DNA of 52,438 bases from an uncultured Lachnospiraceae bacterium (GTDB lineage: Bacteria; Bacillota; Clostridia; Lachnospirales; Lachnospiraceae): contig CARBBL010000001.1 of the NCBI GenBank assembly GCA_948943595.1, forward strand, positions 1 to 52,438, given 5' to 3'. The first letter of the stretch is position 1; each line of letters opens with the position of its first letter. A model generated the notes under the pieces. That model was not told where the DNA came from and did no database searches. It saw only the letters and a program-made list of their open reading frames with translations. Of the stretch, positions 20,971 to 28,607 are shown piece after piece. Position numbers and translations under genes: made by a program.

Positions 20971-21378
20971 TTAGAGCAGTGTATCTAAAATATGGACTAA
21001 GGCATCAATATCAATGGGCTTTGCAATGTAATCATTCATTCCAGCAACTTTAATTTTTTTGAGATCGTCAGAGTAGGTGTCAGCAGTTATTGCAATGATA
21101 GGTAGAAGTTCTAGGTCTTTACGACCAGATGCTCTTATAGTGGTGGATGCCTCATATCCATTCATGACAGGCATCTGAATATCCATTAAAACCATTAGAT
21201 AGGTTCCAGGGACTGATTCTAACAAACGATCTACAGCTTCCTTTCCATTGTAGGCTTTATCGACCTCAAAGCCTTTAATATTGAGAATTCCCTCAGTCAT
21301 CTCCATATTTAATTCATTATCTTCCACTACTAATATTCGTGGGGTTGCAGGTTTGTTCATTACACTTCTCCTTATCAA
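20971..21378 (-). CDS. single-domain CheY-like response regulator
   Basis: A REC domain only (VVEDNELN...DIQMP) lies downstream of the che operon. Confidence 0.8.
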   Translation of the reverse strand: MIRRSVMNKPATPRILVVEDNELNMEMTEGILNIKGFEVDKAYNGKEAVDRLLESVPGTYLMVLMDIQMPVMNGYEASTTIRASGRKDLELLPIIAITADTYSDDLKKIKVAGMNDYIAKPIDIDALVHILDTLL

Positions 21379-21457
21379 GCGAAATCTTATTATTTTTTAT
21401 TGTACATGAATATAAGCAGTGTATCAAGGAAAATACAAAAAAATTTATGTATCACAT

Positions 21458-21585
21458 GTTACTATTCAGCCATACCCATTTCATGTCGGGCGTCAGCCCT
21501 ATAAAATCGAATATACAAAATGCCTTATGCGAGCAAACTCCCAACAGCATTTTGTATATTCAATTTTGCATGGCTGAACTGTTAC
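21458..21585 (-). mobile_element. MITE-like 128-bp element, copy 2 (inverted relative to copy 1)
   Basis: It is the reverse complement of 7740-7867 with about 5 mismatches. Confidence 0.7.
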
Positions 21586-21692
21586 TATTACATAGTGGCA
21601 TATTTTTGTTGTACGGGGCTGTACATAAAAAACGGTCCCTCGTAAGGAACCGTTTTCTGTATACATATACCTATATAAAGTGCTACATAAAA

Positions 21693-23480
21693 TTAATATT
21701 TGCCAAAGTCACCATCTAAAGAAATAATCTGCTCATTGCTATTGTAGGAAGAAGAGTCAGAGTAAGAACTTGTGTAAGAACTGCTAGAACCAGAGGTAAG
21801 CAGTTTGTATTGTCCAATCAAATTCTTTAATGTGACAGCTTGATTAGATAACTGTTCGCTGGCAGCCGCACACTGTTCGCTGGTTGCAGCGTTGGTTTGT
21901 ACTACTGTAGAAACCTGTGAAATTGCCTGATCGATCTGTGAAATTGCAGTTGCTTGATCGCTAGAAGATACTGTGATATTTCCAATCAAAACAACAATCT
22001 CATCAATAGAATTGACAATTGCACTCAGTGACTTTGCAGTCTCCTCTACAATCTTTGTACCATTTGCAACTTTATGAATAGAATCTTCGATCATTTCAGC
22101 AGTTTCACCAGCAGCAGAGGCACTCTTTGCAGCTAGATTTCTTACTTCCTCCGCAACGACTGCGAAGCCCTTACCATGTATACCAGCTCTAGCAGCCTCT
22201 ACTGCAGCATTCAATGCGAGAATATTGGTCTGGAATGAAATATCATCAATTGTCTTAATAATCTTTGAGATAGTCTCAGAAGACTCGTTAATACTATCCA
22301 TAGCATCGATCATTGCCTTCATCTGATCGTTTCCAGATGCTGCCATAATCTTGATATTATTCACTAAAGAACTTGCCTCTGTTGCCTGAGAAGCATTGGC
22401 TTTTGTACGCTGTGTTACTTCGTCCATAGAAGCAGTTACCTGCTGTATTGCGCTAGCTTGTTCTGTAGAGCCCTGAGCCAATGCCTGGCTTGCATTTGCA
22501 ACCTGCTCAGAACCTACTGTAATCTGTGAGCCTGCCTCACGAATATTACTTAATAGAGCATTTTCATCTGAAACTAGTTTATATAAAGATTTGCCGAGAA
22601 CATCTCTGTCACTACGTGGTTTTACCTCAACTGTGAAATCACCTTGTGCAAGCAAATCTGTAACGCGAACTTGATCTTTGATGCCATCAACCATGATAGC
22701 GAAAGCATCCATTAAATCACCAAGATCATCATTGTACATTTTATGGCAGTCAACATCAACATCGCCTAGGGCCAATTTTTTTGCAGCTTCTGAAAGCTTG
22801 CGAATAGGAACAGTAATTGTTTTAACTAAACGCAATGCATACGCCATTGAAATAAGGATAGAAACAAGAACAACAACAATAACCACTACCTGTAGAGCAA
22901 TAACTTGTTGCTCTACTACTTTATTATTTGCATCAGAGAGTTTATCGACTGCCTCTATCAGCTCAAGCAGTTGATTTTCAACATTGTTTGCAATTGCGAC
23001 ACCGCTATGAGTCAGTGCCTCACGCGCTTGTTCAACATTTCCGTCTTGTGCCATCTGAGCATATTCGGTTGCTGTTTTTATGTACTCGTCCATTTCGTCA
23101 ACTACTTTGTTGTACTTGCTGGTAATATCTGCATCAAAAGCATCTAAGCGATTGCGAAACTCTGTTAGATTTTGATGGGTACTCGCATCATACTGAGACA
23201 TTTCAGCAAGCTGAGCTTGAATCTGTGCAGGATCGTCTGCATAAATATACAAGATATTGCGCAAGCGTACTTTTAGATCTGCAAAATTGCCATATGCTTC
23301 ACTTAAATAATATTTTCCCATTGCATAATTATTGTAACGTGAAGTACGAACTTTATTAACATTGGATGCACTCCATAATCCGACAGACGCGATCACAATC
23401 ATCAAAAACAGCATCATAACACCGAAAAAGATAATTTTGGTTTTTACGGTGGTGCTATTGACAGAAAACTTTTTCTTCAT
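21693..23480 (-). CDS. mcp: methyl-accepting chemotaxis protein
   Basis: It has an N-terminal TM, a periplasmic region, a second TM, HAMP and a methyl-accepting signalling domain. The start MKKKFSV follows AGGAGA. Confidence 0.9.
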
Positions 23481-23502
23481 GGTAAATTCTCCTTTTACTA
23501 TT

Positions 23503-26163: not shown

Positions 26164-26556
26164 TTATAGTAGTCCCAACTTTTCTAATACTTTTTCAAAC
26201 TTCTCTACATCAATTGGTTTTCCCGCATAAGCTTCACATCCAAGTTCAAAAGCCATCTTTACATTGCGTTCTTCATTGAGCGCTGTTGTCATGATTACTT
26301 TAAGACGTTTATTTTTGGGTATTCCTCTTTGTGCTTCAATGTCACGGATTGCCTTTAATACCTGATAGCCATCCATAACCGGCATCATGACATCAAGACA
26401 TGCCAAATCATAAGGCTCCTCATCCTCTAATGCCATCATGAAAGCGTCTACTGCTTCCTCGCCATCGACCATCACATCACATTCACCATATTGTGACAGC
26501 ATCTTATCCATAAATTTACGGCTGGCGAAATCATCCTCTGCCAATAAAATTTTCAT
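26164..26556 (-). CDS. cheY: CheY response regulator
   Basis: A REC domain of 130 aa. Confidence 0.9.
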   Translation of the reverse strand: MKILLAEDDFASRKFMDKMLSQYGECDVMVDGEEAVDAFMMALEDEEPYDLACLDVMMPVMDGYQVLKAIRDIEAQRGIPKNKRLKVIMTTALNEERNVKMAFELGCEAYAGKPIDVEKFEKVLEKLGLL

Positions 26557-26674
26557 ATTTTTTCTACTCCTTTCTATAATGTTCTATGGATGCCAAATCG
26601 TTGAAACAGTAATGCACCCATGCTGTAGGATATGCGCACATAGTATGTTTAATTGCATATCATCACAGTCAAAT

Positions 26675-27697
26675 CTATTTGCTTAACAGGCTGTATACCT
26701 TTCCTGCAATAGAAGAAAGTGGTATACGGTACTGCACTGCACCTATATCATAAGCAACCTTTGGCATGCCGTACACCACACAAGTGGCCTCGTCCTGCCC
26801 GATTGTTTGAGCACCAGCGTTGCGCATTGCTAGCAATCCTTTTGCACCATCGCCCCCCATTCCCGTTAGAATTACGCCGACTGCATTTTTTCCGGCAATT
26901 TTTGCAACGGAGTTAAATAAAACTTCTACAGATGGGCAATGTCCATTCACTCTGTCAGTACCAGCACATTCTACTTGGTAGGCACCGCCAACTTTTACGA
27001 GACGCATATGGCGATCACCAGGGGCGATAAGAACCTGGCCCTGAAGAACTCTATCACCAGTTTGGGCTTCCTTTACAGCCACTTCACATTGATTGTTCAA
27101 GCGGTCTGCATACATTTTTGTAAAACCAGGAGGCATGTGCTGGACAATAACTACTCCTGGAATGTCGCGCTTAAAATGTTTTACCACATCAAAAATTGCC
27201 TCTGTTCCCCCTGTGGATGCACCAATTGCAACAATGCGATCTCTGTTTGCAGCACTGATAGTTCCTACAATAGAGTTTGGCTCAACGCGCTTTAATTTTC
27301 CTACTTTTACAGTGGAAGCAATCTTAATTTTGGTTGCTAACTCCTGTGCAAAAAAATCGTTTAGTTGCGATTGATTGAGATTGCTGGGTTTGTTCACAAA
27401 GTCTACAGCGCCAGCATCTAGTGCATCAAAAACCTTACCGTTTAAGGCACTAATCATAACAACAGGAAGTGGATATTGAGGCATCAGCTTTTTTAAAAAT
27501 TCGATTCCACTCATCCTGGGAAGTTCGACATCCAAGGTCATGACATCTGGTTTATATTTTATAATAGCATCCCGCGCTTCGTAAGCATTTTCGGCCTGTG
27601 CCACAACTTCAATATGGGGGTCGATCTCCAGACCTCTTACAAGTAAGCTACGAAACATAATGGAATCATCCACTACTAGTACTCTAATTGGTCTCAT
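26675..27697 (-). CDS. cheB: CheB methylesterase (REC + esterase)
   Basis: An N-terminal REC domain is followed by a CheB esterase domain (GASTGG). Confidence 0.95.
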   Translation of the reverse strand: MRPIRVLVVDDSIMFRSLLVRGLEIDPHIEVVAQAENAYEARDAIIKYKPDVMTLDVELPRMSGIEFLKKLMPQYPLPVVMISALNGKVFDALDAGAVDFVNKPSNLNQSQLNDFFAQELATKIKIASTVKVGKLKRVEPNSIVGTISAANRDRIVAIGASTGGTEAIFDVVKHFKRDIPGVVIVQHMPPGFTKMYADRLNNQCEVAVKEAQTGDRVLQGQVLIAPGDRHMRLVKVGGAYQVECAGTDRVNGHCPSVEVLFNSVAKIAGKNAVGVILTGMGGDGAKGLLAMRNAGAQTIGQDEATCVVYGMPKVAYDIGAVQYRIPLSSIAGKVYSLLSK

Positions 27698-27803
27698 AAT
27701 AGTTCCCTTACCTCTCTACAGTTTGACTGTAAAATAGAAATGTGCTCCCACCAAGAAAGTAGGAAATTTCCGTGAGCGTATCATGTACATACAATACAAA
27801 AGG

Positions 27804-28607
27804 CTATTTTCTATAAATAGAAGGCTGAACATATTGGAATGATGTCTTCTTGCGATCCAAGCCCTCTGTGGTGCCGATAAAAAGATATCCGCCAGGTTCC
27901 ATAAAATCATATACCTTTTGGATAAGTTGATATTTAGTGCTATCCTCAAAATAAATCATAACATTGCGCAGAAAAACAATATGAAATTTTCGACGAAATG
28001 GAAATGAATTCATCAGATTGAACTGTCGAAAAAGAACTTCCTTTTTGAGGTCATCTTTCACTGCATACTGTTCTGCATCTACTGGTTTAAAATATTTTTG
28101 TTTCCATCGCTGTGGTAGCGGATCGACATCTTCTTTTAGATAAACACCATGCATAGCATGTTTTAATACTCGTTCTGAAATATCAGTTGCTAATACCTTG
28201 GTATCCCAATGATTATGTTCGACTCCAAAGAAATCAAGTAGTATCATGGCTAGCGTGTAAGGTTCTTCTCCAGTGGAGGAGGCGCCACACCAGATACGAA
28301 GATCTCTATCGCGCATGGCAACAGATCTTGCCCAAGGCAAAGCAACGTGTGTCATAAAGTCAAAATGTTCACTTTCGCGCATAAAATATGTATGATTCGT
28401 AGTGAGAACATTAACTAGATCTGTGGCTTCTGTGCCATTGGGGTTTGCTTCAACTTTTTTCATATATTCATCATAATTGGCATAACCATTGCGAACGAGA
28501 TAATTCTCAAGTCTACCGCCAACCAGAACTCTCTTTTTGCTTAAATCAATACCAAACCGTTGTTTCATATATACCACAATACGGTTAAATTCACTGTCTG
28601 TAATCAC
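27804..28607 (-). CDS. cheR: CheR methyltransferase
   Basis: A CheR N-terminal domain plus a SAM-dependent methyltransferase domain. Confidence 0.9.
   Translation of the reverse strand: MITDSEFNRIVVYMKQRFGIDLSKKRVLVGGRLENYLVRNGYANYDEYMKKVEANPNGTEATDLVNVLTTNHTYFMRESEHFDFMTHVALPWARSVAMRDRDLRIWCGASSTGEEPYTLAMILLDFFGVEHNHWDTKVLATDISERVLKHAMHGVYLKEDVDPLPQRWKQKYFKPVDAEQYAVKDDLKKEVLFRQFNLMNSFPFRRKFHIVFLRNVMIYFEDSTKYQLIQKVYDFMEPGGYLFIGTTEGLDRKKTSFQYVQPSIYRK

Follow-up and report, generated by a model that had tools for sequence, protein, structure and literature searches.

A candidate second chemosensory pathway: an F7-like che module between mnmG and rsmG in an uncultured Lachnospiraceae bacterium

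The closest described counterparts of the chemosensory (che) gene cluster reported here are the F7 system of Escherichia coli and Salmonella, which comprises receptors such as Tsr and Tar together with CheA, CheW, CheR, CheB, CheY and CheZ, and the ancestral F7 pathways that lie, as second pathways, beside a main motility pathway in Pseudomonas aeruginosa (Che2) and Vibrio cholerae (cluster III, Aer2/McpB) (PMC7184735, PMC7698151). Such systems are sorted by the length in heptads of the receptor signalling domain, receptors of 36 heptads (36H) being paired with class F7, 44H receptors with F1 and F9, and 40H receptors with the alternative cellular function (ACF) class (PMC6943060, PMC9321776, PMC10746217). 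Our cluster lies at positions 20971–28607 of a 52,438-nucleotide stretch of an uncultured Lachnospiraceae genome (assembly GCA_948943595.1, contig CARBBL010000001.1, positions 1 to 52,438), the whole of which we call the window. It is a compact minus-strand run, cheR-cheB-REC-cheA-cheW-mcp plus a trailing receiver (REC) gene, situated between mnmG and rsmG; mcp encodes a methyl-accepting chemotaxis protein (MCP), and the first REC stands in the place of cheY. We consider it most likely, with a probability of roughly 0.6, that this is a complete F7-like module that was relocated into the mnmG-rsmG junction and forms a second pathway kept apart from a main pathway with 44H receptors.

The cluster resembles the enteric system in its receptor, which combines a 36H signalling domain with a transmembrane four-helix-bundle (4HB) sensor and one HAMP domain and ends in a linker and an aromatic pentapeptide, in its five-domain CheA, and in the cheR-cheB-cheY gene run. 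It differs from that system in its Firmicute host, in having neither CheZ nor adjacent mot/flh genes, in a receiver that is not a CheY equivalog, in a receptor tail (DFGKY) that is part of a longer conserved motif where the enteric receptors have NWETF, and in a CheR whose NWETF loop is three residues shorter. With Che2 and cluster III it shares a single dedicated, in-cluster 36H receptor with a C-terminal pentapeptide and probably a CheY of its own that is not of the motor type, and it would share with them the position of an F7-like second pathway. The receptors of those two systems are, however, soluble PAS-HAMP proteins whereas that of the window is a transmembrane 4HB protein, there are no CheD, second CheW, anti-sigma antagonist or phosphatase genes, and the neighbours of the module in Lachnospiraceae relatives are a PAS kinase and a REC-HD-GYP protein. 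The F1 systems of Bacillus subtilis and Thermotoga maritima are alike in phylum-level host and in core proteins, but the cluster lacks both hallmarks of F1, CheC/CheD and a 44H receptor (PMC10746217); it is another receptor encoded in the window that fits F1 by its length. The Wsp-type ACF pathways that act through cyclic di-GMP (c-di-GMP) offer a last parallel, since in 58 of 63 related loci the Che module is joined to a receiver that is fused to a domain of the c-di-GMP turnover type; the fused domain in these relatives is nonetheless HD-GYP (phosphodiesterase-type) and not GGDEF and comes with a PAS kinase of its own, the CheA of the window lacks a receiver domain, receptors of the ACF class are 40H (PMC10746217), and these HD-GYP genes are absent from the window.

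Gene identities (Table 1) were taken from the listing of open reading frames (ORFs) and from Pfam scans of the window ORFs of at least 100 residues, six of which had no Pfam match. All six che reading frames are full length; the GTG start of cheR coincides in alignment with the starts in relatives, while the start codon of mcp is uncertain (595 or 606 residues in public gene calls). The phospho-acceptor of CheA is intact (H51 within HTIKG), as are the catalytic triad motifs of CheB (GASTGG/HMP/GDG), and four of the five receptor positions aligned with the methylation sites of Tsr carry E or Q, with two strict consensus sites. Of the parts of a Che pathway the cluster holds a CheA with a phosphorylatable histidine, a CheW and an MCP signalling domain, and a CheR/CheB pair with methylatable receptor sites. 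Pfam identified no cheC, cheD, cheV, cheZ, flagellar or pilus families among the window ORFs of this size, and no such genes were present in the ~16 kb past both window ends. An identical copy of CheA is carried by 19 public contigs, and the same gene order over both junctions, at 99–100% identity, was found in four independent assemblies, including the NCBI metagenome-assembled genome (MAG) GCA_949051565.1; because these four agree, the arrangement is not an assembly chimera. The preliminary description of this DNA had proposed a compact, self-contained che operon and a window free of cheC/D/V/Z, flagellar and pilus genes, and both claims hold.

Table 1. Coordinates of the che genes, their neighbours and the local elements discussed in the text (window positions).
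Feature	Position	Strand	Evidence and remarks
mnmG	29142–31061	−	Upstream flank; Pfam GIDA 5.6e-159; 75–82% identical to mnmG of 80 Lachnospiraceae species
cheR, methyltransferase	27804–28607	−	Pfam CheR_N + CheR, 7.5e-55
cheB, REC-methylesterase	26675–27697	−	Pfam REC + CheB_methylest, 4.8e-63
Single-domain receiver at CheY position (atypical CheY)	26164–26556	−	Pfam REC
cheA, P1-P2-P3-P4-P5, without receiver domain	24013–26136	−	Pfam Hpt-P2-H-kinase_dim-HATPase_c-CheW
cheW	23503–24009	−	Pfam CheW 1.1e-36
mcp, transmembrane receptor, C-terminal linker + DFGKY	21693–23531	−	Pfam 4HB_MCP_1-HAMP-MCPsignal, MCPsignal 4.6e-45
Trailing stand-alone REC	ORF 20971–21378; ATG with good ribosome-binding site at 21360	−	Pfam REC 1.8e-24
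rsmG	20060–20803	−	Downstream flank; Pfam GidB 9.2e-53
NarL-type response regulator	19351–20001	−	Pfam REC+GerE
Second receptor, ~44H by length, no HAMP	33961–35547	−	Best PDB matches Thermotoga receptors, not Tsr
Sigma-70-type promoter of che operon, TTGACA-17-TATTAT	28991–29019	−	11/12 consensus matches
~330-nt leader insertion between promoter and cheR	28622–28955	−	Not in L090 or L086 alignment
Terminator-like hairpin then T-run, after mcp	21620–21665	−	Inverted repeat I2
MITE-like element copy A, 128 bp	21458–21585	+	16-nt terminal inverted repeats, 31-nt internal hairpin
MITE-like element copy B, ~97% identical	7740–7867	−	Upstream of parA; exact 31-mer match + alignment

The class of the system was approached through its receptor, whose classing by heptads had also been proposed in the preliminary description. 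Residues 301–578 align without a gap (278 residues) to residues 241–518 of E. coli Tsr, with E-values of ~1e-43 to 1e-45 against Tsr entries, and the C-terminal arm from the hairpin tip (residue 451) is 127 residues long, i.e., 18 heptads, which together place it in class 36H. A 44H Thermotoga receptor, in comparison, matched it only at 4e-16 and with a length mismatch (62 bits vs. 160 for Tsr), and after Vibrio Aer2 (216 bits) its best NCBIfam models were Tcp, Tap, Tar and Tsr, all of these being 36H receptors of F7 systems. The other components likewise scored nearer to enteric than to F1 proteins: CheW gave 96 bits to E. coli CheW vs. 39 to that of T. maritima, the catalytic domain of CheB 217 bits to Salmonella vs. 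135 to Thermotoga (along its whole length CheB shares 47% identity with that of E. coli), CheR 130 bits to Salmonella, its best solved relative, vs. 112 to Bacillus, and the CheA core 308 bits to E. coli vs. 292 to T. maritima. In the Wuichet-Zhulin/MiST scheme (PMC6943060) CheA, CheB and CheR are assigned by class-specific profile hidden Markov models; based on the 36H receptor and on this relative similarity to enteric vs. Thermotoga proteins, we call the module F7-like. It does not have the marks of F1, as neither cluster nor window encodes CheC or CheD and the cluster receptor is 36H, nor those of ACF, as the operon has no regulator with an effector domain and the receptor is not 40H, with the caveat that REC-HD-GYP genes do adjoin the module in related loci, as noted above.

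The second receptor encoded in the window has its hairpin tip at residue 372 and arms of ~160 and 156 residues. As an array is normally fed by receptors of a single class (PMC10746217), and as this ~44H protein differs in class from the 36H receptor of the cluster, the genome is likely to carry a further CheA/CheW set elsewhere, probably flagellar and of F1 type, judging from this one receptor gene; the che operon is then probably a second, insulated pathway. The gene of this receptor adjoins one for a sugar-type solute-binding protein (33961–36819, minus strand), a pairing that might point to binding-protein-mediated sensing.

That the cluster sits in an unusual place was evident from a MnmG search in which each species was represented by a single genome and which returned 80 loci at 75–82% identity, nearly all labelled Lachnospiraceae (Acetatifactor, Roseburia and MAGs), 73 of which carry both mnmG and rsmG. 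The gap between the two genes is at most 256 bp in 67 of these 73 species and 0.7–6.8 kb in the other six, vs. 8,338 bp in the window, and no che genes lie between mnmG and rsmG in any of the 73. Because the gaps of relatives are short and free of che genes, the insertion is lineage-specific, and the earlier claim that the cluster splits two normally adjacent genes is borne out. The junction itself accepts insertions in a minority of relatives (L011 (7157–14004), L018 (2402–6037), L039, L080, L067 and L010), and the cargo annotated in the two largest of them, those of L011 and L018, is unrelated to che: it consists of genes for a helix-turn-helix (HTH) protein, a hydrolase, a methyltransferase, and NUDIX and GNAT proteins, and L011 has all five kinds. 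The NarL-type regulator beyond rsmG had been put forward as a hint of an alternative function, and we also considered it as an output of the che pathway; we rejected both ideas, since rsmG is likewise followed by a NarL-family regulator in most relatives without che genes there, which places the regulator with rsmG and not with che. Upstream, mnmE precedes mnmG in 72 of 75 relatives, almost always directly adjacent and in the array yidC-jag-mnmE-mnmG-rsmG; in the window mnmE is missing from this position, which is occupied by genes for an MVP_shoulder protein, the second receptor and the solute-binding protein.

CheA has thousands of homologues, the best 120 of which are 80–100% identical, and we examined the context of the module by looking up three of them and through 80 metagenome loci with CheA 54–87% identical. 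The order cheR-cheB-REC-cheA-cheW-mcp proved invariant in all loci compared (~80), while the sequence outside this unit varies between clades, with at least 14 different contexts downstream; the six genes are, by comparison of these loci, one conserved Lachnospiraceae-wide module. Its annotated downstream neighbours are housekeeping genes (UDP-glucose dehydrogenase, SufBD, LysR, leuC, TrkAH, pyrC, thrC, lspA, and ABC transporters), with no flagellar genes among the annotated neighbours, and queries with E. coli MotA, MotB and FlhB over 2.85 Mb of fetched loci, a search of low sensitivity, gave no matches. In the 63 loci with enough upstream sequence there were, with few exceptions, REC-HD-GYP genes directly upstream of cheR (58 loci, e.g., L088 3452–7645), preceded in 51 of the 58 by a PAS-HisKA kinase gene, frequently accompanied by a stand-alone Hpt protein and another REC-HD gene. 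The HD...HHxxxDGxGYP pattern typical of HD-GYP domains is present in these che-linked REC-HD proteins. The window, L090 and L106 clearly depart from this layout. L090, which has the closest CheA with a long context (86–87% identity), resembles the window in that rsmG and a NarL regulator follow the module and that no PAS-kinase or HD-GYP genes stand in front of it, and differs from it in having no mnmG upstream and no trailing REC. In L106 (2400–7600) cheR is preceded by several consecutive receiver genes, and two REC-HD genes stand behind mcp rather than in the upstream position. The window, its mnmG-cheR spacer included, yielded neither orthologues nor remnants of the PAS-kinase and REC-HD-GYP genes. 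The window does encode an HD_5/HD-domain protein (3726–4952, minus strand), in which no receiver was detected and whose gene adjoins parB-DUF4446 and serS; it is not orthologous to the che-linked REC-HD-GYP proteins, to which it is 26–33% identical over part of its length. In the papers searched, neither a Che-HD-GYP module nor any F7-like system of Lachnospiraceae is described.

Within the module the receiver in the CheY position is atypical. It keeps the acidic pocket and the conserved Asp, Thr and Lys, yet its PDB matches at E<1e-10 included no canonical CheY, the best being the REC of yeast Sln1, and against the NCBIfam model of E. coli CheY it reached 38 bits vs. a cut-off of 189. Its score to E. 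coli CheY itself (52.8 bits) is that of a generic receiver, as the trailing REC scored 52.4 and the NarL receiver 48.9; by these comparisons it is not a recognisable CheY. Among the closest relatives, nonetheless, no other protein of the module is as well conserved (88–94% identical vs. 80–86% for CheA), a degree of conservation that suggests a conserved partner.

From the domain content and the intact motifs the pathway is apparently functional, and we would propose that the membrane receptor, with its 4HB sensor and 36-heptad signalling domain, controls CheA through CheW, that phosphorylated CheA passes its phosphate to CheB as well as to the small receiver that stands in for CheY, and that adaptation follows from methylation and demethylation of the receptor by CheR and CheB. 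The output would be carried by the atypical conserved receiver, which could act on the flagellar motor or, e.g., on c-di-GMP turnover through HD-GYP regulators. Separation from the main pathway would come from the one receptor dedicated to it, as the conserved tether motif at the C-terminus of this protein may recruit the adaptation enzymes of the module itself. As to its origin, the module would have entered the mnmG-rsmG junction, close to the block of replication-origin genes, together with its own conserved promoter but leaving the PAS-kinase and REC-HD-GYP genes behind, and a miniature inverted-repeat transposable element (MITE), the stand-alone receiver gene and the leader insertion of ~330 nt would be later, species-specific additions.

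The receptor tail bears on how such separation could work. All orthologous receptors end in NE(Q/K)IISL(D/E)G(D/E)FGKY or a close variant, behind a linker of ~25–35 residues that is of low complexity and varies freely in sequence; in the window this linker is ~29 residues (579–607) and Ser-rich. The last five residues fit xZxxZ (Z = F/W/Y) in nearly all orthologues; the group formed by L156–L158 ends instead in NLGKY/NLGKF. It is by this pattern that the pentapeptide tethering CheR/CheB has been defined, and only 2.9% of the receptors of Clostridiales carry it (PMC7390727); in the F7 Che2 system of P. aeruginosa the tail of the single receptor binds only the CheR2 and CheB2 of that pathway, thereby insulating it (PMC7698151). 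By analogy with Che2, the tail may insulate the window pathway too, an idea we find attractive.

Several observations weigh against a relocated second pathway of this kind. The F7 call draws on receptor class and relative similarity, and for CheA the margin is small; the second CheA and the flagellar genes are deduced from a single 44H-like receptor. The loop of CheR equivalent to the NWETF-binding RGTGPHEG of the Salmonella beta-subdomain lacks the glycines in addition to being shorter, so that the tether may not serve CheR. The leader insertion could impair expression. The module also occurs in Lachnospira sp. (CheA 62% identical), a named carrier from a motile genus, and could thus be a motility pathway, as F7 systems drive flagella in enteric bacteria.

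This last point leads to the main rival explanation, namely that we are dealing with the sole flagellar chemotaxis operon of the species in an unusual spot, its small receiver binding the motor switch and the flagellar genes lying elsewhere. The canonical five-domain CheA with its P2 domain, the full set of adaptation enzymes and the transmembrane 4HB receptor would all suit such a role, as would the control of E. coli flagella by an F7 system (PMC7184735) and the presence in Lachnospira. Yet the receiver resembles CheY no more closely than unrelated receivers do, the gene of a receptor from a different length class lies 5 kb away and receptors normally share an array only with others of their class (PMC10746217), the module was never found beside flagellar genes in its 14 or more contexts, and REC-HD-GYP genes almost always adjoin it. 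We therefore regard a sole motility operon as unlikely, if a serious contender.

The same REC-HD-GYP linkage invites a more far-reaching speculation, i.e., that the whole (Hpt)-PAS kinase-REC-HD-GYP-cheR-cheB-REC-cheA-cheW-mcp unit is an undescribed chemosensory pathway of alternative function, in which an adapting F7-like receptor array would set the breakdown of c-di-GMP via HD-GYP phosphodiesterase regulators as a degradative counterpart of Wsp, the window species being a natural uncoupled variant that signals through the atypical receiver alone. We put this forward tentatively and think it rather unlikely to hold in full.

The module could instead be a decaying remnant, useless once cut off from the PAS-kinase and HD-GYP genes and heading for loss. 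The partners are indeed not in the window, ~330 nt have been inserted between promoter and cheR, and the cheR-cheB and cheB-cheY gaps have grown to 106 and 118 nt, as compared with 1 and 32 nt in L086. Against decay speak the six full-length frames with their intact catalytic motifs, the conserved promoter, and L090, which is likewise uncoupled with an intact module, so that this state has persisted across species; we hold decay to be improbable. Recent horizontal transfer from Proteobacteria, which the more E. coli-like than Thermotoga-like proteins might suggest, and an assembly or binning chimera are both rejected as very improbable, given an identity to E. coli of only 32–47%, orthologues at 54–87% identity across Lachnospiraceae, a GC content of the cluster (37–41%) like that of its surroundings, the absence of any integrase or transposase gene, and the same junctions in four assemblies.

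The che cluster is thus a system of a known kind that has undergone a genuine rearrangement, and not a new kind. Lachnospiraceae are major butyrate producers of the gut, and their flagellins and motility shape host immunity; to our knowledge, no study has addressed how their chemosensing is wired. In these Firmicutes a pathway of the E. coli-like (36H/F7-like) sort is a stable module found throughout the family, probably beside a 44H pathway, and it is nearly always partnered with HD-GYP regulators, with natural variants in which the partnership is broken. The locus, otherwise an ordinary rearrangement, is in this respect a concrete entry point to how Lachnospiraceae combine chemosensing with second-messenger control.

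Some elements of the locus are local additions. The promoter segment of the che operon is kept upstream of cheR in L090 and L086, and the leader insertion that follows it in the window is, by alignment, species-specific. This insertion contains three copies of TTTTTCTTTGTAAGATG (at 28759, 28813 and 28879, spaced 54 and 66 nt) and is moderately structured (RNA fold z-score −3.3); the ribosome-binding region, GGCAGATAGGAGTT, occurs twice. At Rfam gathering thresholds the whole window, including the leader and the MITE-like element, gave no riboswitch or known RNA, and matches of the MITE hairpin to microRNA families were sub-threshold only (Rfam E<1) and taken as chance.

The MITE-like element reported earlier near mcp is confirmed and has a second copy. 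Copy A is flanked by TATCACAT/TATTACAT, an 8-bp duplication with a 7/8 match, and copy B by a perfect 8-bp duplication, ACAAATTC; among 171 fetched loci the element was found in this species only. It is short and non-coding, with terminal inverted repeats, target duplications and two copies, as expected of a MITE, its parent transposase being not identified. The trailing REC, which had been counted as a member of the che operon, does not belong to it: it has its own promoter-like site (21427–21399) behind the terminator-like hairpin, and we rejected it as part of the module because it is absent from every orthologous che locus and lacks close orthologues, the best homologues from other species being only 57–60% identical. 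It is most like the receivers of BarA/ArcB/TorS-type hybrid kinases. The mcp-rsmG spacer shows no homology to L090 past the end of mcp.

Two minor observations concern the rest of the window. The genes parA and parB are at 5914–7614, and between parA and an FMN-reductase gene lie two AT-rich stretches of ~2.2 kb (7615–9800 and 10563–12770; 30–33% GC) with no ORF of at least 100 residues, no tRNA and no Rfam match, which may be decayed genes. The MVP_shoulder protein encoded directly upstream of mnmG (31178–33643, minus strand) has 821 residues and no NCBIfam match; Pfam identified its MVP_shoulder domain at 1.2e-20, along with a weak match to Vault_3.

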